This document shows positions 8,250-23,961 of a stretch of 64,000 nt of DNA, one piece after another (within the stretch, counting starts at the first letter, position 1; each line of letters begins with the position of its first letter). Under the pieces are notes generated by a model. It worked only from the letters and a program-made list of their open reading frames with translations, was not told the origin of the DNA and made no database searches. Made by a program: the position numbers and the translations under genes. Source of the stretch: a candidate division CPR2 bacterium GW2011_GWC2_39_35 (GTDB lineage: Bacteria; Patescibacteriota; CPR2); contig LBWX01000001.1 of the NCBI GenBank assembly GCA_000995065.1, forward strand, positions 159,563 through 223,562, in the 5' to 3' direction.

Positions 8250-8285
8250 AAAATACTAATTTATGCTAAACTAAATTAGTATTTT
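8250..8285. repeat. perfect 14-bp AT-rich inverted repeat aaaatactaattta / taaattagtatttt with an 8-nt spacer
   Basis: Direct reading. Sits ~30 bp upstream of tRNA-Gln. Confidence 0.7.
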
Positions 8286-9900
8286 AAAGTTGTTTACTGT
8301 TTCCTGCTACCTGATTATGGGGAGTCGCCAAGCGGTAAGGCACTGGGTTCTGGTCCCAGCATTCGGGGGTTCGAATCCCTCCTCCCCAGCCAAAGGGGAC
8401 GCACCCCGGCTGAAAGTCGATAATTATGCAATAGAAAGGCGAAATCTCGGAGTTCGAATAACGTTCATCTTGCCATACCAGTCCGGATGGAAATATCGAA
8501 CTCAAGAGAATTCGTGTTTGATCCAGGTTGGAATTAGCAAAGGTCTGTGACAAGTTTTCGAACTTACTTCTTATAAAGTTAGTTATATCTTCAAGATTAT
8601 ATTTACCAATAAGCTCATCATTTTTAGTTACTTGAATATCTTTTATTTTCTCTTCTAACACCTTATTCTGCTCTTTAAACATCTCGTCGGAATAAACACC
8701 CGATAGATTCTTTTGTATAAGCGCTTGGCGTGTCCCATACAGCTTCTTTAACTCAATATCGGCATCCTCTCGTCTCTTTTGCAGCGTTGAGATCCTCTGA
8801 TAATACGTTTTCTTCAGAAAGGTATTAAATAGCTCTAAAGTCTCAACAGTGGGAGTTATTTGGGCTAAATAATCCATCGTTGCTAGATTTAGTTCGTCTA
8901 CAGAAAAAGACTTGCTACAGCGATTAGGGCAAAAATAATATGCATAGCGCTTTGTCTTGCCTTGAGTCCAGGCGCCCGTAAGGGGACTATCACAATGCTT
9001 GCATCTTACAATGCGTCTAAGAGGGAAGTCTGGATTGTCCTGATTCCTTCTCATAATCGGCGTAGAAATATTAGTATTCCGACCATCCAGGATAGCCTGG
9101 ACTTTGTAAAATAATTCCTCGGTGATCATGGCCGGATGTTGACCCTCAACTTCTTGGCCGTACTTTTTAGAAATAACTTTACCAGTATAGAACTTGTTAT
9201 GGAAAAGCCTGTTGATTGTTTGCGGCCTTATGGGTCCGCCTTTTTGTCTCTGAGTAACTCCTTGCTTGGTTAGGATATCCGCTATTTCCCTTAATGTTTT
9301 TGTGCCGGTAGCCACTAAATCCCAGGCTTCTTTTATCTTGTCAGAAGTTGCCGGATCTTTTATTGCATAGCCGTTTTGATTAATATACCCAAGCGGTACA
9401 TATGCTGCGAGTCCGGCCTGAAACCTTGCTCTAAGACCATTCCGGCTTCGTTCACCTCTAACATCATTATCCATTTGAGCAAACCCGGCCAGCATTGTTT
9501 CCACAAATTTCTCTGTGGGGCTATTACCTGTTGGTTCAGTTGCTGAAACTAATTTAATATCACATTCAGTCAGTTTTCTTCTTATTACTAAATAATCTGC
9601 CGTTTCCCTGGAAATGCGATCAAGACGATACACAATGACGGCTGCAATTTCTCTTTTTTGCTTCCTACAAAACTCTAGCATTTCAATGAGAGTCGGGCGG
9701 CCATTGATGGTTTTTGCTGACCGTCCTTCTTCTTTAAAAACCTGCAAAACATCAAAGCCTCTGTTTCTGGCATCTTTCCTGCATATGTCTTCTTGTGTAC
9801 CTAACGAATAATTCTCAACCTGGTCCTCACTTGATACCCGAACATAAATTACTGCCTTCTCAGGTCTTAATGCGGTTTTTCCAAAGTTTATTTGGCTCAT
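8284..9900 (-). CDS. large serine recombinase (resolvase N-domain + recombinase domain + zinc-ribbon/coiled-coil)
   Basis: N-terminal AVIYVRVSSEDQ catalytic-Ser motif. Recombinase domain and CxxC...C region. 538-aa ORF. The last ~45 codons run antisense through tRNA-Gln and the 24-bp repeat, so the true C-terminus is uncertain. Confidence 0.8.
   Translation of the reverse strand: MSQINFGKTALRPEKAVIYVRVSSEDQVENYSLGTQEDICRKDARNRGFDVLQVFKEEGRSAKTINGRPTLIEMLEFCRKQKREIAAVIVYRLDRISRETADYLVIRRKLTECDIKLVSATEPTGNSPTEKFVETMLAGFAQMDNDVRGERSRNGLRARFQAGLAAYVPLGYINQNGYAIKDPATSDKIKEAWDLVATGTKTLREIADILTKQGVTQRQKGGPIRPQTINRLFHNKFYTGKVISKKYGQEVEGQHPAMITEELFYKVQAILDGRNTNISTPIMRRNQDNPDFPLRRIVRCKHCDSPLTGAWTQGKTKRYAYYFCPNRCSKSFSVDELNLATMDYLAQITPTVETLELFNTFLKKTYYQRISTLQKRREDADIELKKLYGTRQALIQKNLSGVYSDEMFKEQNKVLEEKIKDIQVTKNDELIGKYNLEDITNFIRSKFENLSQTFANSNLDQTRILLSSIFPSGLVWQDERYSNSEISPFYCIIIDFQPGCVPFGWGGGIRTPECWDQNPVPYRLATPHNQVAGNSKQL
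8318..8392 (+). tRNA. tRNA-Gln (anticodon CTG)
   Basis: Manual cloverleaf fold. Acceptor UGGGGAG/CUCCCCA with U1:A72 as in bacterial tRNA-Gln. D-stem GCC/GGC. Anticodon stem CUGGG/CCCAG with loop UUCUGGU. T-arm GGGGG-UUCGAAU-CCCUC. Discriminator G. Encoded CCA. Confidence 0.8.
8392..8415. repeat. 24-bp direct repeat copy 1 (aaaggggacgcaccccggctgaaa), candidate att core
   Basis: Identical 24-mer at 19809-19832. Copy 1 begins at the last A of the tRNA-Gln CCA. Contains the GGGG-ACGCA-CCCC hairpin. Confidence 0.8.
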
Positions 9901-10048
9901 TTAACCCTCCCTTATTAGCTCCTTCAATGTTTTATTATTAAAAACCTGTCTTTCATATTCATTAAGCCAACATTCCAAGAGGTATTGAAATTCAGTAAGA
10001 AAGGAATCAAGATCTTCATCTGATAGCATACTAACGGCTTCTCCCATG
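9901..10048 (-). pseudogene. 3' remnant (49 codons) of a gene split by the IS481-like insertion; stop overlaps the recombinase ATG (TAAATG)
   Basis: Reading minus-strand 11139-11604 and 9901-10076 across one copy of the 12-bp duplication restores a continuous ~210-codon frame. Confidence 0.45.
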
Positions 10049-10076
10049 ATTGTCCGAGCCTTTTGAATCCGATTAT

Positions 10077-11126
10077 GGTACAGGGTCTAGACATTTAGGA
10101 CACTAAAATCTAAGTTTGCTTTCTCATAGCCCTCTAAACTTTTAAGGTATTCAAGTGGTGTTTTGTTAGACAAAGATTCATGGGGTCTGTAAATATTGTA
10201 CTTAACACAGTTTTCTGTGTTCAACTTCTGTAGCTTCAATATATCACTAAAGCTATCTAGTTTTGAATACACTTCCCTTTGATCGGTTCGGTGGCTTCTC
10301 TCAACTCGTCCATTGATGTTGGGACTAGCTGGAGGGATGAGGATGTGATCAATGCCTAGCTTCTGTAATAGCTCATCTAGCGGATGAGTTCTTTTAATCT
10401 TTAGGAAGTGATTGTAGGTAAACTCCGTACCATTGTCTGTTTGGATAATCTCTGGTACAAAAGCCGGTAAAAAGAACCGCCTAGCCTTAAGAACAAAATC
10501 AACTGTGTTTAAGGGAGTGATATTGTCATAGATATATTTAAATTTAATTCTGGTAGCACAATCGATGATGGAATATTGATAGGCTTCTCTTTTTAGGTGC
10601 TTTACATCCAATTGAAGCCTTTCCCCCGGATAGTAGGGATAATCCCAATAATTTCTACTTATGCGTTTCTTCTTGGGTTTTTTCTTAATTAACCCTAGCC
10701 TATGTAGGTTGTTGTTAATCCCTCGATCAGAAACCTTGATGCCATAATCTCTCTCCAGCACAAATTGGATCTTGGCTTTGCCCCAGTTATTCTCCTGTCT
10801 TAGTTTAATAATTAGTTCAATGATATCCTCATCATAGGACCTCGGGTTTGTTAAGGGTTTTTTGCTTTTGTCGTAGAGGCTCTTTTGACTTTTACCTGAT
10901 TCAACCCATCTTTTGTGCCAGTAGTAATATGTACTTCTTTCAATACCATAATATTTACAAGCTGCTTTAGCCGATCCTAATTCCTTGGCTTTTTCAAACC
11001 AAGCGAGCCGGAGCCTAGCTCCGTAAATGGTTAATTGTTTCTGGGTCATCTTGTATCTCACTTTTAGTCCTCTCTATTGTTTAATATTCTACTAAAAGTG
11101 TCCAACATGTCTGTACCCTGTATAAT
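10077..11126 (-). mobile_element. IS481-family insertion sequence (~1050 bp) with ~28-bp imperfect terminal inverted repeats and 12-bp target-site duplication
   Basis: TIRs GGTACAGGGTCTAGACATTTAGGACACT (left) versus the reverse complement of AGTGTCCAACATGTCTGTACCCTGTATA (right). Direct repeats gaatccgattat at 10065-10076 and 11127-11138. Confidence 0.7.
10087..11061 (-). CDS. DDE transposase, IS481 family (rve integrase core)
   Basis: N-terminal HTH region, QTDNGTEF and NGRVERSHRTDQRE motifs of the rve DDE domain, 324 aa. Confidence 0.8.
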   Translation of the reverse strand: MRYKMTQKQLTIYGARLRLAWFEKAKELGSAKAACKYYGIERSTYYYWHKRWVESGKSQKSLYDKSKKPLTNPRSYDEDIIELIIKLRQENNWGKAKIQFVLERDYGIKVSDRGINNNLHRLGLIKKKPKKKRISRNYWDYPYYPGERLQLDVKHLKREAYQYSIIDCATRIKFKYIYDNITPLNTVDFVLKARRFFLPAFVPEIIQTDNGTEFTYNHFLKIKRTHPLDELLQKLGIDHILIPPASPNINGRVERSHRTDQREVYSKLDSFSDILKLQKLNTENCVKYNIYRPHESLSNKTPLEYLKSLEGYEKANLDFSVLNV

Positions 11127-11604
11127 GAATCCGATTATCTACTTGACGTTCAGAAAAGGTTTGCACTAAAGAGTTAAATGACTGTCTAGGGCTAAAGGGG
11201 AGTTCAAAAGATCTTTTCCCAGTTGCAAATTCAGTGTTCTTTGGCACACTTGCACCATTTGTAAACACGCCTGGCCTGTCTAAAACATTTGTTGTACTTG
11301 TTTCCATTGCAAACTCCTTACTATGGTTATATTCATAGTCTACTATGGGTATATCCACAGTGTCAAGGGGATAATTTGAGATCGTTTTAGTCTCGTTTAC
11401 CTGTTTCTTTAGCCCTGTTTTTAGCCTTTCCTTTCCCATGTCTTTTTCCTTTCTTTTAAAAAATGCGTGCTTTTGATACCAGACACAAATAGGTGAGGAA
11501 GCAAGCGTAGTCAAAACTGGAGCTCCCCACCGGAAGAACGAGTTTGACGACGCTTTCCTCGCCGTATAATCCAAACCCAAAAGCACTTCTTTTAGAAATT
11601 CCAA
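11092..11604 (-). pseudogene. hypothetical gene, 3' end interrupted by the IS insertion (last 11 codons and the stop come from IS/TSD sequence)
   Basis: The ORF terminates inside the IS right end. See reconstruction with 9901-10048. Confidence 0.45.
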
Positions 11605-11650
11605 GTCTTAAAGAGTGTTATTAAAACGTTATGACTATGACCAAACTTAA

Positions 11651-11679
11651 TTGAATCTTAAGCGATTTAAGAGTATAAT
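11651..11679 (+). promoter_or_regulatory. sigma70-like promoter TTGAAT-17 bp-TATAAT for the cargo operon
   Basis: Direct reading ~40 bp upstream of the first cargo ORF. Confidence 0.45.
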
Positions 11680-11720
11680 GAAGCCAAAATTAAGCAATCG
11701 TTTTGGTTTAGGAGAATATA

Positions 11721-11954
11721 ATGGAAAAAGACGAAATCCTTGTTGCCGAGTTTACTGCTCCAGAATTAATGCTTGCTTGTCAGAAAGCTAAGGCAATTGT
11801 TACTGATATGGGCGGCGTACTTTCCCATGCTGCTATAGTTAGTAGAGAGTTAAAGATCCCTTGTGTTGTAGGTACTCATACAGCCACTAAAGCTTTAAAA
11901 AATGGCAATAAAATCTTAATTGACTTAAATTCTGGAACAGTTCAAAAGATTTAA
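11721..11954 (+). CDS. stand-alone PEP-utilizing-enzyme mobile (phosphohistidine swivel) domain protein
   Basis: TDMGGVLSHAAIVSRELKIPCVVG matches the swivel-domain signature with the conserved His. 77 aa. Confidence 0.6.
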   Translation: MEKDEILVAEFTAPELMLACQKAKAIVTDMGGVLSHAAIVSRELKIPCVVGTHTATKALKNGNKILIDLNSGTVQKI

Positions 11955-12016
11955 ATTAAGTAAAATATTAAGAATCTAATCTCGAAGTTACTTCATGAAT
12001 AAAAACGAGGAATGAA

Positions 12017-12688
12017 ATGAATACAAATCCATATGCAAAAAGAATATTAATTTTCGGAGACTCAAATGTCTGGGGCGATATTCCGCTTCAAGTCGGAACT
12101 AGGCTACCTGCCAATGTTCGCTGGACAGGGGTTTTACAGAATATGCTTGGAAATGATTATGAAGTCATTGAAGAAGGTTTAATAGGCCGAACAACAAATG
12201 TTGATGATCCATTTCCAGGTTTTGAAGACAAAAACGGAAAAGATTATCTTTTTCCTTGTTTAAGGTCTCAAATTCCGCTTGATTATGTTATTTTACTTTT
12301 AGGAAGTAATGATTTTAAGAAAGTTTTTAACCGAACAGCAAAAGATGTTGCTAAAGGTATTGATGAGCTCTTAACGCTTACAGAAAAATACGCTGAAAGA
12401 GACGGGGTTAAAGCAAAAATTCTTTTAATATCTCCTACCTATATCAAACCGAAAATCGAAGAAGTAAAACCTCATTTTTCAGGCTCTCCTGAAAAATCAC
12501 TTGAGTTGGGAAAAGAATTAGAACAAGTAGCCAAAAAACATCAATGCGGATTTATTAACTTGGCAGAATTTATTGAACCAAGTGATCTTGATAGTATTCA
12601 TTTGGAACCTGAATCACATAAAATAGTGGCCCAAAAGGTTTTTGAATTTTTAAAGAAGTCGAGGAATAAGCATGAAGCTAAAAGATAA
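12017..12688 (+). CDS. SGNH/GDSL-family hydrolase
   Basis: Block I GDS motif (IFGDSNVWG) and LLGSND block. Confidence 0.65.
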   Translation: MNTNPYAKRILIFGDSNVWGDIPLQVGTRLPANVRWTGVLQNMLGNDYEVIEEGLIGRTTNVDDPFPGFEDKNGKDYLFPCLRSQIPLDYVILLLGSNDFKKVFNRTAKDVAKGIDELLTLTEKYAERDGVKAKILLISPTYIKPKIEEVKPHFSGSPEKSLELGKELEQVAKKHQCGFINLAEFIEPSDLDSIHLEPESHKIVAQKVFEFLKKSRNKHEAKR

Positions 12689-13394
12689 ATATGCAATTGT
12701 AACAGGAGCCTCGACAGGAATTGGCAGGGCTATTGCTGTCCAATTTGCCAAAGAAGGGGCTTTTGTGGCTTTGGTAGCAAGAAGAGAAGATAGGCTGAGT
12801 GAAACCAAAAGAATGATTGAAGAAAATGGCGGCAAGGCTAAAGTTTTCATTACTGATTTAAGCAACATTGAATCTGTAAATAAAATGATAGGTGAAATTA
12901 AAAGCGATACTATAAGAATAGATATTTTAGCAAACATTGCCGGTATTTGGCATGGCGAGGATGAGGTTTATGCAGATACCGATTTTGAAAAATTTAGCCA
13001 AAACGTAATTTTAGACACTTATGATGTTGGCATTACTGCTCCAACACTTTTAGCACACGCATTTATTCCTTTAATGCCTAAAAGGGGTAAAATATTAAAT
13101 TTATCTGGCACTTTTGAATCCGGAGCTAAGGGATGGCTGCCTTATTATGTTTCTAAAAAAGCTATCGAAGATTTAACTGTTGGTTTATCTCAAGAATTAA
13201 CTGACAAAGACATCCAAGTAAATTGTATTTCTCCTTCTGATACGGCAACCGAGGAATATAAAAAATACTTTCCCCAATACATTAAAGATGCCATTGAACC
13301 AGAAGAAATAGCTAAAGAAGCCGTCAGATTTTGTTCTTCTGAGAGCGATGATATTACTGGCACCATTAAAGTAATTAAAAAGATGGGGGTTTAA
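12672..13394 (+). CDS. short-chain dehydrogenase/reductase (SDR)
   Basis: TGASTGIGRAIA Rossmann motif and YYVSKKA (YxxxK) catalytic motif. Confidence 0.8.
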   Translation: MKLKDKYAIVTGASTGIGRAIAVQFAKEGAFVALVARREDRLSETKRMIEENGGKAKVFITDLSNIESVNKMIGEIKSDTIRIDILANIAGIWHGEDEVYADTDFEKFSQNVILDTYDVGITAPTLLAHAFIPLMPKRGKILNLSGTFESGAKGWLPYYVSKKAIEDLTVGLSQELTDKDIQVNCISPSDTATEEYKKYFPQYIKDAIEPEEIAKEAVRFCSSESDDITGTIKVIKKMGV

Positions 13395-13395
13395 A

Positions 13396-14793
13396 ATGAA
13401 TAAACTAATCTCAACCAATCCTGCCGATAACTACACCAAAGTTGGTGAAGTAGAAATTTCAACCGATGAAGAAATTAAGGAAAAAGTTGCTAAAGCCAAT
13501 GCAGTTAAGACTATTTGGAAAGAACTTGGCGTTGATGGAAGGGTTAAACTACTAGAGCCAATTCGTGATGAATTTAAGACTCGAACTAATGAAATTGCTG
13601 AGCTAATTAGTTTAGAAACAGGCAAAGCAATCACAGAAAGTATATCCGAAGTAACTCGTTACGCTGAGGAGTTAACTTGGTTTTTAGAAAATGGTCCCAA
13701 AGCTTTAGCAGATGAAATAACACTAGAGGATAGTGAATCCTTGCATAGAATTAAGTACGAACCTTACGGCGTAGCAGCAGCCATTGCTCCTTGGAATTTT
13801 CCATTTGGAATGATGGTTTGGGGAGTTTTTCCAAATTTAGTTGCCGGTAATACTGTAGTTTTTAAAACCTCAGAGGAATCACCACTAACGGGTAAGTTAA
13901 TTGAAGAGATAATGTTAAGCCACAATCTACCGGAAGGTGTTTTTGCCGAAGTTTACGGTGCTGGTGATGTTGGCAAGAAACTCACAGAAAGTGATATTAA
14001 CTTAATTTGGTTTACGGGTAGCACCAGAACCGGAAAAGCGTTATACAAAACAGCAGCCGAGAAGTTTATCAAAGCTGTTCTTGAAATGGGAGGCTCCAAC
14101 CCTTGCGCTGTTTTTGAGGATGTTGATGTTTCCAAAACTGCTCCTGTCATATTCAATGGACGATACCGAAATAATGGTCAGGTATGCAGTGCTCTTAAAA
14201 GACTAATTGTACATGAAAACATTGCTGATGAACTTATATCTGAGCTTAAGAAAATCATTGAAAGCCAAAAGGTAGGAAATCCTCTTGATCCGCAGACTAA
14301 TTTAGGGAGTTTAGTCGCCAAAAGACAAAAAAACCTACTTGAAGAACAACTTAAAGATGCCTTAGACAAAGGCGCTAAAATAGCTGCCCAAACTAAACTC
14401 CCCGAAGGTTTAAAAGGTGCTTTCTTTGCTCCTACCTTACTGACTGATATTACTAAAGATATGAGAGTTTGGCATGAAGAAGTCTTTGGCCCCATTTTTC
14501 CATTAGTAACATTTAAGACAGAAGAAGAAGCCATAGAATTAGCTAATGATACTATCTATGGTCTCGGGGCAAGGGTAATGTCGGCTGATAAACATCGAGC
14601 TGACAGGGTGGCATCCAAAATAGATGCCGGTTCGGTAGCAATAAATACCGAATCAAGGTTTTGTCCTTGTGATCCTTTTGGTGGCTTTAAAAATTCTGGT
14701 CTAGGGCGTGAGCGTGGGTATGCCGGTCTTCAGGAGCTATGCCAGATTAAGGTTATTCAAGCATCAAATGATACTATATATACTGAGGCATAA
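13396..14793 (+). CDS. NAD(P)-dependent aldehyde dehydrogenase
   Basis: 465 aa. FTGSTRTGK, the EMGGSNP-type Glu region and the catalytic-Cys region (GQVCSA) typical of the ALDH superfamily. Confidence 0.85.
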   Translation: MNKLISTNPADNYTKVGEVEISTDEEIKEKVAKANAVKTIWKELGVDGRVKLLEPIRDEFKTRTNEIAELISLETGKAITESISEVTRYAEELTWFLENGPKALADEITLEDSESLHRIKYEPYGVAAAIAPWNFPFGMMVWGVFPNLVAGNTVVFKTSEESPLTGKLIEEIMLSHNLPEGVFAEVYGAGDVGKKLTESDINLIWFTGSTRTGKALYKTAAEKFIKAVLEMGGSNPCAVFEDVDVSKTAPVIFNGRYRNNGQVCSALKRLIVHENIADELISELKKIIESQKVGNPLDPQTNLGSLVAKRQKNLLEEQLKDALDKGAKIAAQTKLPEGLKGAFFAPTLLTDITKDMRVWHEEVFGPIFPLVTFKTEEEAIELANDTIYGLGARVMSADKHRADRVASKIDAGSVAINTESRFCPCDPFGGFKNSGLGRERGYAGLQELCQIKVIQASNDTIYTEA

Positions 14794-14795
14794 AT

Positions 14796-15554
14796 ATGGT
14801 AAACGCATCAAAAACTATCGGAATAATTGACTTTAATCCAGATCAAAACCCTGATCGAAGGCAATATGTAAAACGGATTAGTGCTTTACTTTCTGGCAAT
14901 GTAAGTGGTGAAGGCATATTCTTTAGGGAAGTAGACGATTTAAATAAATATGATGCTCTTATTCTATCGGGCTCTAAGCTTATCTCTAAACATTATCAAG
15001 AAATGGTTAGATCAGGGCAAGGATTGGAAGGTGATTATATTTGGATTGATAGGGCAGTTCAAGAAATAGCCAATTTTAAGGGGCCAATTTTTGGTATTTG
15101 CTTTGGTTCTCAAATCTTAGCACATATATTTGGTGGTGAAATCGGAAGGTTGGATAAAACCGAGGCTGGATATTTGCTTCACGAACTAACAGATGTAGGA
15201 TTAAATGATCCTATTTTTGGAAAGTTAGGTAAAACTTTCTGGGCTTCCCATTACCATATTAACTATGTCAAAACTTTACCTGATAATCCAAATTTAGCGT
15301 CAGATGTTCTTGCAACCAGAAATGGATATATCCATGCCTTTCGAATAAAAACTGCTTCTGGCGTAACTCACTATGGAACCCAACCCCATCCAGAAATGTC
15401 TAACCCAAAAGATGCTGTTTTCCTTGTCGAGGTAAATAAGGAACGGCTAATTGAAGATATTGGCGTTGAGGAATGTAATAAAGCTTTAGAAATTCCAAGT
15501 AATGCTAGTTTTGAATTTCAGAATGTAATTAAAGAGTTTGTAAAAAGAATATAA
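14796..15554 (+). CDS. class I glutamine amidotransferase-like protein
   Basis: GICFGSQ nucleophile-elbow Cys and downstream HPE consistent with the Cys-His-Glu triad. Confidence 0.65.
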   Translation: MVNASKTIGIIDFNPDQNPDRRQYVKRISALLSGNVSGEGIFFREVDDLNKYDALILSGSKLISKHYQEMVRSGQGLEGDYIWIDRAVQEIANFKGPIFGICFGSQILAHIFGGEIGRLDKTEAGYLLHELTDVGLNDPIFGKLGKTFWASHYHINYVKTLPDNPNLASDVLATRNGYIHAFRIKTASGVTHYGTQPHPEMSNPKDAVFLVEVNKERLIEDIGVEECNKALEIPSNASFEFQNVIKEFVKRI

Positions 15555-15563
15555 AGGAATAAT

Positions 15564-16151
15564 ATGGACGAAACACAAAGAATAATCGATTTTATACACT
15601 ATGCAGAGAAGCTGAAAACAGAACTAAGAAAAGCTTTTAAAAGTGATGAGAGCCGAGAAAGTGTAGCTGAACACACTTGGCGAGTTTCTTTAATGCTACT
15701 TTTGATAGTGCCTAAACTAAAAATAGAGGTTGATTTTCTAAAGATTCTTAAGATGGCGATTATTCATGACTTAGCTGAAATTGAAGCAAAGGATGTGCCA
15801 GTATTAGAATCTATAAACAACCATGAAAGGCTAAGCATAAAAGAAGAACAAGAGTTGGCAGCAATGAATAATATTAGAGCAATGCCGGGAGCTGATGGAC
15901 AAGAAATTTATGATCTATGGTCAGAGTATGAGGAACAAAAAACCAATGAAGCCAGGGCTTTAAAAGCTATTGATAGACTTGAAGGGCAGTTTCAATTCTT
16001 GAGCGAAAATGTAACTACTTTTACCGAACAAGACCAAGAAGCAATTAAGAAATTATTAGAAGAAACTACCAAACTATCTAAAATTGATCCATTTATCACT
16101 AGGCTAGACGAATTAACAATGGAAGATAGGCAAAATAGGATTAAATTCTAA
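15564..16151 (+). CDS. HD-domain phosphohydrolase, YfbR-like 5'-deoxynucleotidase family
   Basis: ESVAEHTWRVSLM ... IIHDLAEIEAKD HD motifs. Confidence 0.7.
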   Translation: MDETQRIIDFIHYAEKLKTELRKAFKSDESRESVAEHTWRVSLMLLLIVPKLKIEVDFLKILKMAIIHDLAEIEAKDVPVLESINNHERLSIKEEQELAAMNNIRAMPGADGQEIYDLWSEYEEQKTNEARALKAIDRLEGQFQFLSENVTTFTEQDQEAIKKLLEETTKLSKIDPFITRLDELTMEDRQNRIKF

Positions 16152-16153
16152 GA

Positions 16154-16903
16154 GTGGTAACGATGAAAGATGAAATTTCAACAAAAAAAGCTCTTGGCAT
16201 TTTGGCAAAAACTTTGCCACAAATTATTTATACTACTATTCTTGGCCTTACCCAAGTCAACCCTGTATGGTCAATTCTTTTTTACACCGGATTAGGAATG
16301 GTTAATGCCTGGGGATCCTTCGGCCAGGTTAGAATCAATGAGTTAGTTACATTTATAGATAAACATAGAGATCAGTTCCTTCCAGATATTATTAAGAGTG
16401 AGAAATTTAAATCTATCTTTCTAAATATCTTAGATGCTTATTTTAAAGAAACATTAGAAGAAAAAAGAAAGTTGCTAAGAAATTATTTATTAAATGTCGG
16501 AAAAGGTATAGAGAAAGACTTTGATTATCATACAAAATTAATGACCGTTTTGAATCAGATCACGTTTGATGAGCTTAAGGTTATCTCAATTTGGAACGGT
16601 AAATTGCAGGATAAGTTTGTTGAGAAAAATTCAGAAATTGGCTACACAAGGGATAATATTGAAGAAAAAATGACAAATCTTAATGCGGGACAAATCGCAT
16701 GGGCGTTAGGAAGAGAGGAAAAAGGTCAAAAAATTATGAGAAATATCAATTTTCTTGTGAAATCACTGGGTAATTACGGACTTTTAGATGTGAGAGAGTC
16801 TACACCAGTTATATTTGACAGTGAAAATAATAACTCTACTGTTGTTGTAGATGGAATAAGTGATTTCGGTAAAGCATTCCTAGGCTTTTTAAAGGAGGAC
16901 TAA
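16154..16903 (+). CDS. hypothetical protein
   Basis: 249-aa ORF in the operon. No recognisable motif. Confidence 0.4.
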   Translation: MVTMKDEISTKKALGILAKTLPQIIYTTILGLTQVNPVWSILFYTGLGMVNAWGSFGQVRINELVTFIDKHRDQFLPDIIKSEKFKSIFLNILDAYFKETLEEKRKLLRNYLLNVGKGIEKDFDYHTKLMTVLNQITFDELKVISIWNGKLQDKFVEKNSEIGYTRDNIEEKMTNLNAGQIAWALGREEKGQKIMRNINFLVKSLGNYGLLDVRESTPVIFDSENNNSTVVVDGISDFGKAFLGFLKED

Positions 16904-17263
16904 ATGGCAGAGATCGGAACAATTCAAAGATTTAGAGCTTCTCATGGGAAAGATAACCATGAGCATGATTTTAAAGTTGTAGTGGTTCTAGGTGGGCCAA
17001 TCGATAACGATACAGGGTATGTTTCTGGTGTTGATCATCATGACCTTATTGATAAATTAAAACAAATTCTGGGAAAGCTTGAGGATCAGAATTTAAATCA
17101 AATCCTCAAGGATGATGGTTCAAAATCCTCTGGTATGGAATCTATTGCTACTTATGTTCTTAAAAGATTGTTACCCGATTTACCCTCTTTAAAACTGGTA
17201 AAAGTTTGGGAAACAGATGATAGATATGCAATTATCTATCCAGGGGATATTGGAAATGTCTAA
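16904..17263 (+). CDS. 6-pyruvoyl-tetrahydropterin synthase / QueD-like fold protein
   Basis: His-containing N-terminal segment (HGKDNHEHDFKVVV), TGYVSGVDHHDLID, and ESIATYVLKRL...VKVWETDDRYAIIY resembling the PTPS C-terminal signature. 119 aa. Confidence 0.5.
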   Translation: MAEIGTIQRFRASHGKDNHEHDFKVVVVLGGPIDNDTGYVSGVDHHDLIDKLKQILGKLEDQNLNQILKDDGSKSSGMESIATYVLKRLLPDLPSLKLVKVWETDDRYAIIYPGDIGNV

Positions 17264-17705
17264 TCAAACTAAAAAGCAAACATCAATCATAATTGGATTA
17301 AAGGATAACAAAGTTCTCTTGGGTATGAAAAAGAGAGGTTTTGGCGAAGGTTATTGGAATGGTTTTGGCGGTAAAAGAAACAAAAGTGAAACCATGACCG
17401 AAGCTGCTCTTAGGGAAATTGAAGAAGAAGCAGGAATTATTCCCACCGACTTAAAAGAAGTTGGAATAATTGAATTTGATACTTTTACGACTCATATTTA
17501 TACCTTTTCCAACTATGAGGGAAAATTAACCGAATCCGAAGAAATGAAACCAAAGTGGTTTAATAATAATAGTCTCCCTTATGACAAAATGTGGGAAGGC
17601 GATAATATTTGGTTTCCCTTAGTTTTAGATGGCAAATGTTTTGATGCCGAATTTATATTTGAAGGTAAAAATTTAACCGAATGTCATATAAAGGTTAGGA
17701 AATAG
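17256..17705 (+). CDS. Nudix hydrolase, MTH1/NUDT1-like (oxidised purine dNTP pyrophosphatase type)
   Basis: Nudix box GGKRNKSETMTEAALREIEEEAGI. Overall resemblance to MTH1 (LGMKKRGFGEGYWNGFGG ... MKPKWF ... MWEGDNIWFPL). ATG overlaps the upstream stop (ATGTCTAA). Confidence 0.75.
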   Translation: MSNQTKKQTSIIIGLKDNKVLLGMKKRGFGEGYWNGFGGKRNKSETMTEAALREIEEEAGIIPTDLKEVGIIEFDTFTTHIYTFSNYEGKLTESEEMKPKWFNNNSLPYDKMWEGDNIWFPLVLDGKCFDAEFIFEGKNLTECHIKVRK

Positions 17706-17848
17706 AGATTGAACACAAATATTGTTCTAAATGACTTTAAATAAATCCTAAAGTTAGCATCAATTTTGACAGCCATAGATTATGGTCCGATAAAAAAGTT
17801 ACCCTTTTTTAAAAAGATAAGTTAAAATTAAGTGGTTTGGAGAACTAA

Positions 17849-18220
17849 ATGAAGTACAAATACACGGCTCAAGAAGCCAAACATATCAATAAATATGGTG
17901 CCGATTTAACTGTTTTCGGCCAAGTTGCGCCAACTGCAAGTATTGTTCGTATTTCGGTTGAAGAAGGGCATTTTGAAGAGTTTAAGCATGATGAAAGCAC
18001 TTTTATTTACTATGTTATCAAGGGTAATGGCATCTTTGTTCTTAATGATGAACAAGTGGAGGTTAAGGCTACGGACTTGATAGCAATCCCACCAAAAACC
18101 CGAATTCATTATTTTGGAAAAATGGAAATGCTGCTTGTGGTAACTCCTGCCTTTGACCCAAACAAAGAAGGCCACGTTCGGATGATCGGCAAAGAAGAAA
18201 ATCCATTAAAAAGAAGATAG
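17849..18220 (+). CDS. cupin-like small protein
   Basis: 123 aa. Beta-rich composition with a conserved His/Glu spacing. Weak call. Confidence 0.35.
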   Translation: MKYKYTAQEAKHINKYGADLTVFGQVAPTASIVRISVEEGHFEEFKHDESTFIYYVIKGNGIFVLNDEQVEVKATDLIAIPPKTRIHYFGKMEMLLVVTPAFDPNKEGHVRMIGKEENPLKRR

Positions 18221-18313
18221 TGCCCATTTTAACCCGAGCATCTTGTTCTAAGAAGTATAATTCGCTATTTTTGTTTTTATCGCTTAAAATAAAATTGATT
18301 AAGATTAGGATAT

Positions 18314-18835
18314 ATGAAATTTGTCGATACTAACCTCAAAGTACCTTTGGTACTGAAAACAGAAAGCTTTACTCTTAGGCCGTTGTCTCCGAAATATACA
18401 GAAATGGATTATAAGGCTATTATGTCTAACTTGGAACATCTGCAGGGCACCTTTGGTCCTTCCATAAAATGGCCGACAGCCGATCTTACGTTAGAAGAAA
18501 ACCAGTATGACTTGGAATTTCATCATGACCTTTTTATGAAGAGAGAAGAGTTTAGTTATATTGTTCTTGATCCGAAAGAGAAGTATTCAAAAGGTTGTGT
18601 GTACTTAGTTCCTTTGCTGCATCCGGATTATGACGTTTTAGTTTATTCTTGGGTTACCGCCAAAGAGGCAAAAAAGAATTTTCATCCTGTTCTAATTAAA
18701 ACTATTAAAGAGTGGTTACAAACATCCTGGCCGTTTAAAAAACCAGTTTTCCCCGGAATAACCATCTCTTGGGATGAATGGGATAAATGTCTGGGAGCAA
18801 ATGCAAATAATCCTACTCTCAAAACCCAAAATTAG
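18314..18835 (+). CDS. hypothetical protein (possible GNAT-like fold)
   Basis: 173-aa ORF. Weak resemblance only. Confidence 0.3.
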   Translation: MKFVDTNLKVPLVLKTESFTLRPLSPKYTEMDYKAIMSNLEHLQGTFGPSIKWPTADLTLEENQYDLEFHHDLFMKREEFSYIVLDPKEKYSKGCVYLVPLLHPDYDVLVYSWVTAKEAKKNFHPVLIKTIKEWLQTSWPFKKPVFPGITISWDEWDKCLGANANNPTLKTQN

Positions 18836-18941
18836 CAAAACCTAATTTTAATAAGAAATTACTCTAACTAGAAAACCAAGTGGTTTCGGACATTCTTTTC
18901 ATAAGTCTACTAATGCTATTATCCTGTTATTTAGTAGTGAA

Positions 18942-19190
18942 ATGTGGTATATTATCAGCAATATGACAAACGATAATAATGAGACAATCCGAAAAGAATT
19001 GGGTGAGAAAATAAAAAAGGCTAGAGAAAAAGCCGGACTAACCCAATCAGAAGTAGCTGCTGCCGCAGATATTAATGTTAGTTATTATGCTCAAATCGAA
19101 AGGGGGGAAGTAAACCCCTCATTTGAAAAACTTCACAGTATTACAAAAGTCCTTAAATTAAAGTCGTTTGATATTCTTAAAAAGAGTTGA
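18942..19190 (+). CDS. XRE-family helix-turn-helix transcriptional regulator
   Basis: LTQSEVAAAADINVSYYAQIERGE HTH_3 signature. The true start may be the internal ATG at 18963. Confidence 0.7.
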   Translation: MWYIISNMTNDNNETIRKELGEKIKKAREKAGLTQSEVAAAADINVSYYAQIERGEVNPSFEKLHSITKVLKLKSFDILKKS

Positions 19191-19191
19191 T

Positions 19192-19704
19192 ATGATTTGC
19201 AATAATGTTAACAATATTAGTTTTATTGGTATGGCTGGAGTCGGTAAAAGTTATTTCAGTAATAAGCTAATTAACTTCGGATATGAACACATTAAAGTAG
19301 ATGAACTTATTACCAATTTAGCCAACCTGAAGGGTGTCAACAAAGAAACGATTTCTGACAGTGAGTTTATAAAACTCGAGGAGCAAGCCATTCTTAACTT
19401 AAAAGAAGTATCCGAATCGGCAATTGATACCGGAGGCAGTGTTATATACTCTAATGAGGCTATGGAGTTACTTAAAGAAATTTCAGTTGTAGTATATCTT
19501 AAAGATTCCTTGGAAAACATTAAAAAGAGATTTGATGTCAGAGGCGAACCTCATTTGATCGGAATTGAAGGCAAGACCTTCGAAGAATTATTTCAAGAAA
19601 GATCTGAACAATACCAAAAATATGCAGACGTTATAATAGATGTTACAAAGATAAGCGATATTGAAGAAATTCTTTCAATAATCGGATCAAAGTCCCAAAA
19701 ATAG
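19192..19704 (+). CDS. P-loop kinase, shikimate-kinase-like fold
   Basis: Walker A GMAGVGKS. Overall collinearity with the AroK family (VDEL..., DTGGSVIYS, LID-like region). The track ORF starts at 19168, overlapping the regulator. Confidence 0.5.
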   Translation: MICNNVNNISFIGMAGVGKSYFSNKLINFGYEHIKVDELITNLANLKGVNKETISDSEFIKLEEQAILNLKEVSESAIDTGGSVIYSNEAMELLKEISVVVYLKDSLENIKKRFDVRGEPHLIGIEGKTFEELFQERSEQYQKYADVIIDVTKISDIEEILSIIGSKSQK

Positions 19705-19808
19705 AAATTCCACAGCTGCAACCACTAACTATGTAACTTCCTTAAAAGCTCTCATTATCCTATCAACCCACTCTAAAAAGAGTTCGAAAGAAAGTGCATC
19801 CAGGCAGC

Positions 19809-19832
19809 AAAGGGGACGCACCCCGGCTGAAA
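19809..19832. repeat. 24-bp direct repeat copy 2 (aaaggggacgcaccccggctgaaa)
   Basis: Identical to 8392-8415. Confidence 0.8.
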
Positions 19833-19836
19833 TATA

Positions 19837-19862
19837 AAAAGACCTTGAAATGGGTCTTTTTT
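19837..19862. terminator. bidirectional rho-independent terminator AAAAGACC-ttgaaatg-GGTCTTTTTT between convergent genes
   Basis: 8-bp stem, A-run and T-run on either side. Confidence 0.6.
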
Positions 19863-19981: not shown

Positions 19982-20548
19982 TTATTGGGCTTTAGCTAAC
20001 TCCAGCGCAGCATCAATAACTTTCTCAAAATATTCTTTGGCTTGTACATATTCCTTATATTTCTCTGGATCATTGATTTCCATTCTAAAAACCTCCAGTG
20101 GTTTAAGCTCAAGCTTTTCAACCTCTTCTTCTTGCAGTTTAAAGTTGGATATAGAACCGTCATGCTTTAAGAGGTAAACATTTATAAACTCTCTATTTTG
20201 ATATGTTGCCTTTTTGTTATTAACAAAGGCGTCAACAATTCTTACATAAACAAATTTCAGATCTTCAACATTAGCCTTTAAACCTATTTCCTCCTTAAGT
20301 TCTCTTATGCCGCCTTCTTCAGGAGTTTCGCCTGCATCAATGTGGCCACCCCCGGACACATATAGCAACCCGGGATGGACATCTTTTATCTTTGATCGTT
20401 TTTGTAAGAGTATCTCCCCTTTAGAATTATAGAGCCAAATGTGCGTACAGCGATGCCACTTTCCTTGTTGGTGCACTTCCTTTTTTGGAAGAATCTCACC
20501 GGTTGGATTGCCATTTTCGTCTAGAACTTCTAATAAATCTTCTGCCAT
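19982..20548 (-). CDS. Nudix hydrolase
   Basis: Nudix box GGGHIDAGETPEEGGIRELKEEIGL. 188 aa. Confidence 0.75.
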   Translation of the reverse strand: MAEDLLEVLDENGNPTGEILPKKEVHQQGKWHRCTHIWLYNSKGEILLQKRSKIKDVHPGLLYVSGGGHIDAGETPEEGGIRELKEEIGLKANVEDLKFVYVRIVDAFVNNKKATYQNREFINVYLLKHDGSISNFKLQEEEVEKLELKPLEVFRMEINDPEKYKEYVQAKEYFEKVIDAALELAKAQ

Positions 20549-22060: not shown

Positions 22061-23107
22061 ATGACAAGAAGAAAAACGCGGACAATTCAAATAGGCGGCA
22101 TTAAAATAGGTGGCGATAATCCGATTGCTATTCAATCTATGACCAACACGGATACCCGCGATGCCGCCTCAACCGTCAGTCAGATAAAAAAGCTGGAAGA
22201 GGCCGGGTGCGAGATAATCAGAGCAGCTGTCCCGGATATGAAGGCTGCCGAGGCTTTAAGGGAAATAAAAAAACAAATTTCCATTCCTTTAGTGGCCGAC
22301 ATTCATTTTGACTACAAACTTGCTCTAAAATCAATCGAGTCCGGCGTCGACAAGATTCGAATAAATCCGGGCAATATTGGCAATGAAGAAAAAGTAAAAG
22401 AAGTAGTCCGGGCTTGTAAAGACAAAAATATTCCGATTCGAATCGGAGTCAATATTGGCTCATTGGAAAAAGATATCGAACAAAAACACGGACGAACTGC
22501 CAAGGCCATGGTTGAAAGCGCCTTATTCCATATTCGCATTCTTGAAAAACTAGACTTTCATGACATTGCTGTTTCTCTTAAGGCTTCTGATGTTTTGCGA
22601 ACCGTTAAAGCTTATAGATTACTCTCCGAAAAAGTAGACTATCCTTTGCACTTAGGCATTACCGAAGCCGGCACCCCTAAAACGGGTACCATAAAAAGCT
22701 CTGTAGGGCTTGGGATTATGCTAGCCGAAGGCATTGGAGACACCATAAGAGTTTCTCTAACCAGTGATCCGACAGAAGAAATTCGAGTTGCTTGGGAGAT
22801 CCTTAAATCCTTGAATTTAAGAGAAAGGGGAGCAAACCTTATTTCTTGCCCGACCTGCGGCCGCACAGAAATCGACCTTATTAGTCTTGCAAATAAGGTA
22901 GAAGAAATAGTTCAGAAGATAGATAAACCGATTACTATCGCCGTTATGGGCTGCGTTGTAAACGGACCCGGAGAGGCAAAGGAAGCCGATGTCGGCGTTG
23001 CCGGCGGAAAAGGTGCCGGGGTAATATTTAAGAAGGGGAAAGTACTAAAAACCGTATCCGAAGCAGAACTTTTGCCGGAATTATTAAAAGAAATAGAAAA
23101 ATTGTGA
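22061..23107 (+). CDS. ispG: 4-hydroxy-3-methylbut-2-en-1-yl diphosphate synthase
   Basis: [14 protein letters not shown]-barrel signature and C-terminal [4Fe-4S] Cys region (CPTCGR...[10 protein letters not shown]). Confidence 0.9.
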
Positions 23108-23961
23108 CAGAGGATTTTATGGAAATCAAAATAGCTAAAGAGCTTGGATTTTGTTTCGGCGTCAAAAGAGCGGCTGATATGACTTTAGCCGAAGTTAATG
23201 GCGAGGTAATAAACACGCTTGGGCCTTTAATTCACAATCCCGAATTTACAAAATTTTTGGAAACAAGAAATGCCTATGTAGCAGACACGGTGGGCGATAT
23301 TAAGGGTAAGAAAGTTGTCATTAGAGCACACGGCATCCCAAAAGAAACGGAACAGGAAATCCAAGAAAACAACATAGAAATAATTGACGCTACTTGCCCT
23401 TACGTAAAGAGAGTTCAGCAACTCGCCGAAAAATATTACAATAAAGGCTACTCGGTTTTTATATTGGGAGAAAAAGACCATCCGGAAGTTATTGGCATCG
23501 AAAGCTACGCTCCAAATTCCATTGTACTAAAATACGAACATGATATTCCAGACCTGCCGCCAGAATCAAAAGTAGCCCTCATATCTCAAACAACCCAAAA
23601 ATTTAAGACCTTTGATAGCTTAGCATGTGCTCTTAAAAAACGCTTTAAAAACGTGGCAATTACAAATACTATTTGTGATGCCACCGAAAAAAGACAAAAG
23701 GCCGCCATGAAACTCGCTAAGGAGGTAGAAATAATGATTGTTATCGGCGGCAAGAACTCGTCAAATACCACAAAATTAAAAGAAATTTGCGGGCAAATTG
23801 TAAAAACCCATCATATTGAAACCGAAAAAGAGCTAAAGAAAGAGTGGCTTAAGGACATAAAAACAGTTGGGATAACAGCCGGAGCCTCTACCCCAGACTT
23901 TTCCATCGAAAAAGTTGTAGAAAAGATAAAAAGCATTAATACTCCCGCTCTCACCGCTTAA
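23104..23961 (+). CDS. ispH: 4-hydroxy-3-methylbut-2-enyl diphosphate reductase
   Basis: [15 protein letters not shown] and NSSNT motifs of LytB/IspH. Overlaps the ispG stop. Confidence 0.9.

Follow-up and report, generated by a model that had tools for sequence, protein, structure and literature searches.

Within a 64,000-nt stretch of DNA from a candidate division CPR2 bacterium (contig LBWX01000001.1, positions 159,563 to 223,562; hereafter the window), thirteen open reading frames (ORFs) lie on one strand between positions 11721 and 19704, inside an integrative island that runs from 8391 to 19832 and carries a large serine recombinase (LSR) gene at its left end. A first-pass annotation, made from the letters of the window, had seen in this array an operon with an unusual enzyme mix and had proposed a pterin, modified-nucleotide or nucleotide-pool-targeting system. 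The analysis described here suggests that the thirteen genes are probably a one-off accessory or house-cleaning cargo of a tRNA-targeting LSR island and not one conserved pathway.

The array lies within a tRNA-targeting island

The island measures 11.4 kb between two perfect copies of a 25-nt direct repeat, CAAAGGGGACGCACCCCGGCTGAAA, found by repeat search. The left copy, attL (8391-8415), abuts the chromosomal target, a forward-strand tRNA-Gln(CTG) gene (8318-8392; ARAGORN, Rfam tRNA 59 bits), and beyond the right copy, attR (19808-19832), a hairpin and T-run (19838-19862) lie outside the island. On the reverse strand at the left end lies the LSR gene, whose integrated-state ORF (8284-9900) encodes Resolvase (PF00239), Recombinase and Zn_ribbon_recom domains; the body of the gene is 8416-9900, and the last ~44 codons come from attL and the antisense tRNA. 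The detached 3′ tail of the gene (reverse strand, 19729-19807, ending ...CLDALSFELFLEWVDRIMRAFKEVT and a stop) lies at the opposite end and is 1 nt out of frame in the window copy. The mobile segment assumed in the first-pass annotation is thus delimited by the 25-nt repeat and tRNA-Gln, with the LSR inside its left end, and it has the make-up of an LSR element, an att-flanked insertion whose edge encodes Resolvase, Recombinase and Zn-ribbon domains. The predicted attB junction reads ...CCAGC-CAAAGGGGACGCACCCCGGCTGAAA-TATAAAAAG... and the predicted attP junction ...CCAGGCAG-CAAAGGGGACGCACCCCGGCTGAAA-GTCGATAA....

Upstream of the LSR, on the same strand, a partner gene is interrupted by an IS481-family element (10077-11138, reverse strand), assigned by the rve, rve_3 and HTH_32 domains of its transposase (10087-11061) and by tblastn matches to annotated IS481 transposases. 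The element has 26-nt imperfect inverted repeats (10079-10104 and 11097-11122) and a 12-nt target duplication, GAATCCGATTAT, at 10065 and 11127, and it separates the C-terminal fragment of the partner gene (9901-10076, reverse strand), whose stop abuts the LSR ATG, from the N-terminal fragment (11139-11439, reverse strand). Deletion of the IS481 element in silico gives a 158-aa ORF, to which the gene upstream of the LSR shows 31-64% identity in 79 of 80 related loci. The 158-aa protein has no Pfam or NCBIfam match and may be a directionality factor of the LSR. No remnants of Replic_Relax were found in the window. The source population is candidate division CPR2 of Rifle groundwater, and all 17 contigs retrieved from it carry the island in the same place.

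Layout and annotation of the thirteen genes

As first described, the thirteen ORFs are all on the forward strand in the ORF listing of the window and are tightly packed: eight of the twelve junctions overlap or measure at most 9 nt (-47, -23 or +1, -17, 0, 1, 2, 2 and 9 nt), and the other four are 62, 93, 106 and 143 nt. Same-strand junctions of at most 20 nt make up 67% within the array versus 34% outside it, but co-directional packing is general in the window, which has 59 of its 72 ORFs in forward orientation. The promoter that had been assigned to the array, TTGAAT-17-TATAAT (11651-11679, forward strand), is present in the right place, in intergenic DNA 5′ of the first cargo gene, but promoter-like matches in the region (33) are no commoner than in shuffled sequence (30.8 ± 6), so the motif is consistent with a promoter there and is not evidence of one. 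A ribosome-binding site (RBS), AGGAGAA, stands at 11711 ahead of the first ORF.

Gene callers place the start of the 246-aa ORF at 16163 instead of 16154, and the GTG-start, 249-aa version of this ORF (16154/16163-16903) has no record in an exact-protein look-up. They start the last gene, encoding a shikimate-kinase (SK)-like protein, at the ATG at 19192, 1 nt past the stop of the XRE regulator gene before it. The overlap that had been reported for these two genes at the 3′ end (-23 nt) therefore depends on the choice of an earlier start, since the callers give a spacing of +1 nt. Pfam profiles back 11 of the 13 family labels of the first-pass annotation, the ORFs at 16163-16903 and 18314-18835 being left without a match in profile searches and in searches against PDB sequences. 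Since none of the array proteins reached an NCBIfam equivalog cut-off, only family-level names are justified.

Family assignments of the cargo proteins

The array is led by a stand-alone phosphohistidine swivel domain, as had been noted: a 77-aa protein (11721-11954) that covers the full PF00391 domain (E 1e-24) with the His motif SHAAIV intact. It is 56-59% identical to residues ~366-446 of full-length PpsA from two contigs of the candidate phyla radiation (CPR). No PpsA remnants were found flanking the ORF, and swivel matches near related islands are full-length chromosomal ppsA genes lying outside those islands. Such an ORF, corresponding exactly to an internal PpsA domain with no partner domains nearby, would suit an explanation in which the cargo is hitch-hiker DNA that is decaying and now does little, the swivel for example being a ppsA fragment; the IS481 insertion in the partner gene and the frameshifted LSR tail point the same way. 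We regard decay as improbable. All 13 ORFs are intact and keep their catalytic motifs (swivel His, amidotransferase Cys/His-Pro-Glu, HD, Nudix box and Walker A), the swivel ORF starts and stops cleanly and is preceded by an RBS of its own, and identical sequences occur in several independent assemblies.

The swivel ORF is followed by an SGNH/GDSL hydrolase (12017-12688; PF13472/PF00657, E 1e-10), a classical short-chain dehydrogenase/reductase (SDR; 12672-13394; PF00106, E 2e-37) with no NCBIfam equivalog at cut-off, and an NAD(P)-dependent aldehyde dehydrogenase (ALDH; 13396-14793; PF00171, E 4e-135). Next is a stand-alone protein resembling class I glutamine amidotransferases (GATase; 14796-15554; PF00117, E 4e-13), in which the GICFG nucleophile elbow and the HPE motif are present and which, among solved structures, is nearest to GMP synthase subunit A and gamma-glutamyl peptidase. 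A Puu-like polyamine route, combining the ALDH with a Peptidase_C26-like GATase, was considered and dropped: PuuA and PuuB are absent and the similarity to C26 is weak. The sixth gene (15564-16151) encodes an HD_3 phosphohydrolase (PF13023, E 3e-34), probably of the HDDC2/YfbR/YGK1 5′-(deoxy)nucleotidase family, which matches 3kh1, HDDC2 and YGL101W (YGK1) in the PDB and scores 25.6 bits against the NCBIfam YfbR equivalog (cut-off 122).

The 246-aa protein that comes next (16163-16903) has no sequence match in Pfam, NCBIfam, PADLOC, PHROG or the PDB. Its AlphaFold model is confident (pLDDT 83.6) and mostly helical, with hydrophobic helices at the N terminus and a winged-helix-like hairpin at the C terminus, and a Foldseek search of the PDB with it returned nothing below E 0.1. 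The family comprises 23 clusters among 5.8 billion proteins; its named members are from CPR bacteria, and its genes are AT-richer than their host loci.

Downstream of it lies the gene of a 119-aa T-fold protein (16904-17263; PF01242, E 1e-12) related to 6-pyruvoyltetrahydropterin synthase (PTPS), which we call a mini-PTPS. Like members of the PTPS/QueD family (COG0720), it matches the Pfam PTPS profile and retains the three Zn-binding histidines (His14, His19 and His21, which align with HGH in the rat and human enzymes) and the conserved pterin-anchoring glutamate, Glu103, in a WETD motif; neither the Zn ligands nor this Glu vary within the subfamily, all of whose known clusters number seven. 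It differs from that family in its catalytic residues. The protein contains no Cys at all: the position aligned to the catalytic Cys (Cys42 in rat numbering) is Ser, and the catalytic Cys is lacking because the ~20-residue loop that carries it is deleted. The LDHKNL motif reads LEDQNL, without the Asp-His pair of the triad, and this position is not conserved in the subfamily. The neighbours of the seven-cluster subfamily are nucleotide-processing and not pterin genes.

The mini-PTPS gene overlaps by 47 nt that of a Nudix hydrolase (17217-17705; Pfam Nudix E 8e-12) that resembles MTH1/NUDT1, with E 9e-36 to vertebrate MTH1 structures versus 3e-5 to bacterial MutT. It shares ~45-50% identity with vertebrate MTH1 and conserves the Nudix box, WNGFGGK and MW..D..WFPL. 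The residues of MTH1 that recognize the base are Asn33, Trp117, Asp119 and Asp120 (human numbering). Where the vertebrate MW(P/A)DD motif has its first Asp, this Nudix protein has Gly, so its specificity may differ from that of vertebrate MTH1. The MTH1-like family is large, and a search of 1.84 billion representatives gave no relative closer than ~50% identity.

With these proteins characterized, the tetrahydropterin pairing of PTPS and a sepiapterin-reductase-like SDR proposed in the first-pass annotation can be judged. A tetrahydropterin or queuosine-type module, composed of PTPS/QueD, such an SDR and a NudB-like Nudix, would account for the PF01242 match and for two weak NCBIfam matches, one between the Nudix protein and dihydroneopterin triphosphate diphosphatase (E 5e-7) and one between the T-fold protein and QueD (E 3e-5), neither of which comes near its cut-off. 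The mini-PTPS, however, has no Cys of any kind and lacks both the catalytic Cys and the Asp-His pair, the Nudix protein is ~30 orders of magnitude nearer to MTH1, and the SDR is generic and five genes away. No FolE, QueC, QueE or FolB/K is encoded on the island, and relatives show no co-occurrence; neither GTP cyclohydrolase I, QueC/QueE, sepiapterin reductase nor FolK appears among the island genes or in the neighbourhoods of the PTPS-like relatives. The pairing is thus not supported as pterin chemistry; we consider the pterin module largely refuted and give it hardly any credence.

Two further cargo genes precede the regulator. The first encodes a small cupin (17849-18220; PF07883, Cupin_2, E 5e-7), and the second a 173-aa protein (18314-18835) without a match in Pfam, NCBIfam, PADLOC, PHROG or the PDB, whose AlphaFold model is unusable (pLDDT 39). 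An identity as a GNAT-like protein was not confirmed, there being no Pfam, NCBIfam or PDB match even at E 10.

Composition of the array

GC content at third codon positions (GC3) divides the array. The nine genes from 11721 to 17705 have GC3 values of 0.22-0.30 (mean 0.26), against 0.375 ± 0.045 for host genes (Mann-Whitney p 1.5e-6), and the GC skew of this nine-gene block is strongly positive (0.18-0.20). The backbone genes of the island have GC3 values of 0.37-0.41, and the cupin and 173-aa genes a host-like 0.35. All junctions within 12017-17705 overlap or measure at most 9 nt. From the low GC3 and the tight junctions, the nine genes probably arrived as one block, which most likely came from a lower-GC donor and differs in origin from the island that carries it. 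The cupin and 173-aa genes, host-like in composition, probably have separate histories.

Neighbourhoods of cargo homologs

Conservation of the gene set was examined in the neighbourhoods of relatives of four of the thirteen cargo genes (ALDH, 246-aa, PTPS-like and 173-aa) and of the LSR family. The 13 closest ALDH orthologs (51-75% identity) are from Saccharibacteria, other Patescibacteria, Nanoarchaeota and other archaea, and none of the other 12 array genes lies within 10 kb of any of them. Relatives of the 246-aa gene were found in five contexts (L018-L022, L157): one stands between the methylase and specificity genes of a restriction-modification (R-M) operon, and the others are beside a PrimPol/DUF4365/serine-recombinase element or among unrelated genes. 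No neighbour gene is common to all of these contexts, a shifting pattern typical of defence- or mobile-element-associated genes. The PTPS-like relatives of 76% and 69% identity are chromosomal, in DUF3467-PTPS-HDIG(-nucleoside deoxyribosyltransferase)-MBL contexts in which the HDIG gene is not detectably homologous to the island HD_3 gene, and a relative of 50% identity adjoins a gene for a pyridoxal-phosphate (PLP) enzyme (PTPS-PALP, chromosomal). Relatives of the 173-aa gene occur in two contexts, one adjoining type I R-M genes and the other within a TraG/NACHT element.

In total, no other island gene was found within up to 10 kb of the relatives of the four genes, so the co-occurrence that a conserved operon would show is lacking, and the relatives lie in scattered, unrelated contexts. 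For these four genes, this is the pattern by which the first-pass annotation had said its proposal would be refuted. Exact look-ups of the ALDH and PTPS proteins returned only the same Rifle groundwater CPR2 population in identical context, and such matches say nothing about conservation. As had been remarked at first, the combination corresponds to no pathway or defence system described so far.

Two details concern the 173-aa family. An 83%-identical copy lies on another CPR2 contig of the same Rifle metagenome (L071-L073), near type I R-M, RhuM and Bro-N genes, and a 30%-identical relative is cargo of a related LSR island (L131, 7348-7746).

These contexts bear on the possibility that the nine-gene block, or its distal part from the HD_3 gene through the 246-aa and mini-PTPS genes to the Nudix gene, encodes a lineage-restricted purine- or pterin-type nucleotide pathway for damage clearance or for salvage or modification, in which the Zn-containing T-fold protein would bind or transform the base and the Nudix and HD proteins would process the phosphates. 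The overlapping or 0-9 nt junctions and uniformly low GC3 agree with such a pathway, as does the fact that the T-fold, MTH1-like and HD_3 proteins are all of purine-type nucleotide-binding families. The Zn ligands and Glu are invariant in the seven-member mini-PTPS subfamily, whose closest relatives overlap an HDIG-type HD gene, followed once by a nucleoside 2-deoxyribosyltransferase-family gene. That HD gene is nevertheless not detectably homologous to the HD_3 gene of the island, the 50%-identical PTPS-like relative stands beside the PLP enzyme instead, no relative has a Nudix, GATase, ALDH, SDR or SGNH gene nearby, and the 246-aa gene between HD_3 and PTPS moves freely, in R-M and mobile contexts. 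A dedicated pathway of this kind is the chief alternative to a set of individual enzymes, but we consider it unlikely.

Nucleotide-depletion defence, which had also been put forward at first, is unlikely. In searches of PADLOC-DB v2 with the ten cargo proteins other than the SDR, ALDH and cupin, only generic matches were obtained, of the Nudix protein to PDC-S07 and of the XRE protein to XRE/control-protein models, and the Nudix and HD proteins appear to belong to house-cleaning families and not to the dNTP-triphosphohydrolases. More broadly, all or part of the array could act against phages or mobile elements, either through depletion or alteration of nucleotides by the Nudix and HD enzymes or through the 246-aa or 173-aa proteins. 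A location on a mobile island would be apt for such a function; relatives of the 246-aa gene lie within an R-M operon and beside a DUF4365/PrimPol/recombinase element, those of the 173-aa gene lie near type I R-M genes accompanied by RhuM/Bro-N and within a NACHT/TraG element, and PDC-S07, to which the Nudix protein weakly matches, is a PADLOC defence candidate. Beyond the generic Nudix and XRE models, however, no component of a PADLOC system was detected. MTH1-like Nudix and HDDC2/YfbR-like HD proteins are sanitizers of damaged or monophosphate nucleotides, not bulk depleters of dNTPs, no sensor-effector architecture is visible, and related islands carry mostly non-defence cargo. A defence role of the array is therefore quite improbable in our judgement.

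A shared backbone with idiosyncratic cargo

Large serine recombinases mobilize elements such as SCCmec (ccr) and those of phiC31- and Bxb1-type integrases. The island resembles such LSR-mobilized islands and prophage-like elements in having the LSR domains at one end, site-specific insertion, variable cargo and a small neighbouring gene, and it differs from them in the use of tRNA 3′ ends of many identities, in an att core inside the LSR ORF and in its CPR host; the window copy differs further in its unusually long 25-nt repeat. Targeting of tRNA 3′ ends is the usual habit of tyrosine integrases and is unusual for serine integrases.

At least 248 relatives were detected when metagenomes were scanned with the LSR, and 80 loci with 53-67% identity were kept. 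An antisense tRNA overlaps the LSR 3′ end in 38 of the 45 loci scanned for it (L075-L159), and eleven tRNA identities are represented at the related loci (Glu, Ser, Tyr, Pro, Met, Asp, Phe, Arg, Lys, Gly and Gln). Homologs of the XRE regulator (49-75% identity) stand at the far end of 13 related islands, on the opposite strand and 1.5-9 kb from the LSR start, and none of the other cargo genes of the window's island is shared with any of the 80 related islands. Replic_Relax is present in 8 of 11 islands surveyed and absent from that of the window. The other cargo in this census of 11 islands is heterogeneous and includes diversity-generating retroelement (DGR) reverse transcriptase with bAvd, DUF285, sortase, inositol monophosphatase, histidine phosphatase, glyoxalase, oxidoreductase and AlaX-like proteins. 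Thus, the partner gene, LSR and XRE recur, with or without Replic_Relax, and the cargo does not, which indicates a shared backbone with idiosyncratic cargo.

A direct repeat of comparable length was found only in L104 (23 nt), the other cores being 7-11 nt. One further tRNA-Phe-integrated copy was detected by a scan of viral contigs with the LSR, and scans of viral contigs with the HD_3, GATase, Nudix and kinase proteins gave no relatives. Literature searches on CPR serine-recombinase islands returned nothing specific. The DGR parts, a reverse transcriptase and a bAvd-like accessory protein, occur among the related islands L098, L102, L086 and L127.

The cargo as a probable set of individual accessory enzymes

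Taken with the scattered relatives of the cargo genes, this arrangement suggests a widespread family of islands that would insert at tRNA 3′ ends with a backbone of LSR, partner and far-end XRE, often with Replic_Relax. In the window, the cargo is probably co-transcribed from the left end and would act as individual accessory enzymes. Judged by family membership, the MTH1-like Nudix protein would hydrolyse damaged purine (d)NTPs to monophosphates and the HD_3 enzyme would dephosphorylate (d)NMPs; the ALDH and SDR would oxidize or reduce aldehydes and carbonyls, the SGNH protein would be an esterase, and the amidotransferase-like protein a glutaminase or gamma-glutamyl hydrolase. Together these activities would amount to a damage-control or house-cleaning kit for a metabolically minimal cell. 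The array resembles the sanitation of nucleotides by MTH1/NUDT1 and a 5′-nucleotidase in combining an MTH1-like Nudix with a putative nucleotidase of HDDC2/YfbR type; the difference is that this Nudix/HD_3 pairing is not conserved in any relative examined.

Several points weigh against this reading. The house-cleaning theme groups generic families after the fact, and we infer every substrate assignment of the array enzymes from scores below the equivalog cut-offs. The neighbourhood survey covered four of the thirteen cargo genes and the LSR family. No empty site or excised form of the island was found among the 17 contigs of the population, and tight or overlapping junctions with uniform composition are also expected of a single-pathway operon.

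If the cargo is indeed a one-off set of accessory enzymes, even a remarkable combination of enzymes carried by a mobile element is not necessarily a system. CPR islands appear to shuttle miscellaneous single-enzyme functions, here mostly of damage control, into cells of minimal metabolism. The array also draws attention to three small unstudied families, the Cys-less mini-PTPS and the 246-aa and 173-aa proteins, the latter two of which recur with R-M genes and in mobile elements.

The XRE and shikimate-kinase-like pair

The array ends with the XRE-family helix-turn-helix (HTH) regulator (18942-19190; PF01381, HTH_3, E 2e-15), which is the backbone gene of the island within the array, and the SK-like P-loop protein (19192-19704; PF01202, SKI, E 1e-15), in which Walker A is intact. 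The best NCBIfam match of the latter is an SK-like homoserine kinase of Desulfovibrio (105 bits, cut-off 197). The P-loop protein had been proposed to take part in degrading or recycling (d)NTPs, a role that does not agree with a protein resembling shikimate kinase and not a nucleotide kinase. The two proteins match NF006015, a 314-position model of XRE-SK fusion proteins, the XRE protein at positions 20-91 (42 bits) and the kinase at positions 136-288 (24 bits), as two separate ORFs and against a cut-off of 204. In BzdR, an XRE HTH is fused to an SK-like effector domain (PMC3602430), and SK-like proteins phosphorylate other alcohols as well (PMC5764234).

The pair would be better explained as a split version of BzdR-type regulators, with the XRE protein binding DNA and its SK-like partner serving as a ligand-binding or alcohol-kinase module that modulates it. 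The two proteins resemble BzdR-type regulators in matching consecutive halves of NF006015 and in being encoded by translationally coupled genes; they differ in being two polypeptides with scores far under the model cut-off, and in that the XRE gene alone is a conserved island gene, the SK-like partner being unique to the island of the window. As Walker A is intact, the SK-like protein may still be a kinase.

Integration within the recombinase gene

The recombinase is a more unusual feature of the island than its cargo. The origin of the detached LSR tail was examined in the window and nine related loci (L085, L086, L087, L098, L102, L104, L107, L127 and L134). In the integrated copies, the LSR ORF reads into the antisense tRNA and gives ...G(I/N/S)RT.... 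A homologous tail of ~30 codons lies on the LSR strand at the far end of the island, just past the XRE gene, in eight integrated loci, and joining of body and tail through the shared 7-11-nt core gives in-frame proteins of 526-536 aa in five of the loci, L086 and L098 among them. One such core is TTTGGCGG, the antisense of a tRNA 3′ end. On a 6.8-kb contig (L085, 1694-3509) there is no tRNA, the LSR gene is convergent with the XRE gene at a distance of ~90 nt, and the LSR ends ...SFGGLDALPFEHLLAWLDQLRQAFEES... with the tail in frame. This attP-like arrangement is that expected of the excised form; no terminal overlap that would point to a circular molecule was found in the contig.

In the window, joining of body and tail through the 25-nt repeat leaves the tail out of frame by one base (attR edge, 19805-19812). 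Addition of one G to the window tail gives PFGCLDAL..., which aligns to the family without gaps. The frameshifted sequence is identical in every independent assembly covering attR, so it is a real population mutation and not an assembly error. With the IS481 element in the partner gene and the frameshifted tail, the island copy of the window looks like a decaying, immobilized member of its family and is probably no longer mobile.

As judged from these junctions, the attP of this LSR family lies within its own ORF, and integration at a tRNA 3′ end detaches a tail of ~30 codons. Partition of an integrase gene by its own integration has been described for the 'suicidal' integrases of SSV type (SSV1, pTN3 and pT26-2), in which attP lies in the integrase ORF and integration into a tRNA gene splits it; these belong to the tyrosine recombinases and are reportedly confined to archaea (PMC8371274, PMC7253208). 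The LSR family is like them in having attP inside its own ORF and a gene partitioned on tRNA integration. Unlike them, it consists of serine recombinases (PF00239) of CPR bacteria, and it is therefore an analogue and not a member of the SSV family. A second difference is that only the last ~30 LSR codons are detached, codons from the antisense tRNA being substituted, so the catalytic and DNA-binding domains stay intact. In a limited literature search, integration that splits the integrase's own gene was found for archaeal tyrosine recombinases only, with no bacterial or serine example.

We tentatively put forward, as a possibility that we hold short of probable, that this is the first bacterial, serine-type family of self-splitting integrases and that the exchange of tails is a switch of recombination direction or activity. 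With attP in the last ~30 codons of the LSR gene, the excised element would encode the full-length enzyme with its conserved amphipathic tail (GGLDALxFEHLLAWLDQLRQAF), the integrated element would encode an isoform with a tail read from the antisense tRNA, and the swap would act as a built-in switch. If this is true, own-gene-splitting integration extends to bacteria and to serine recombinases. Large serine recombinases are widely used as genome-engineering tools; in the present family, attB could be predicted from the position of tRNA 3′ ends and attP would lie within the LSR gene itself, and the family would constitute a natural experiment on how the C-terminal tail affects LSR directionality.

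Outside the island, a second Nudix protein is encoded at 19982-20548 on the reverse strand. It best matches type 1 isopentenyl-diphosphate isomerase (NF002995, E 2e-17, below cut-off) and, lying near ispG/ispH (22061-23961, forward strand), may be the idi of this genome and not a nucleotide hydrolase.

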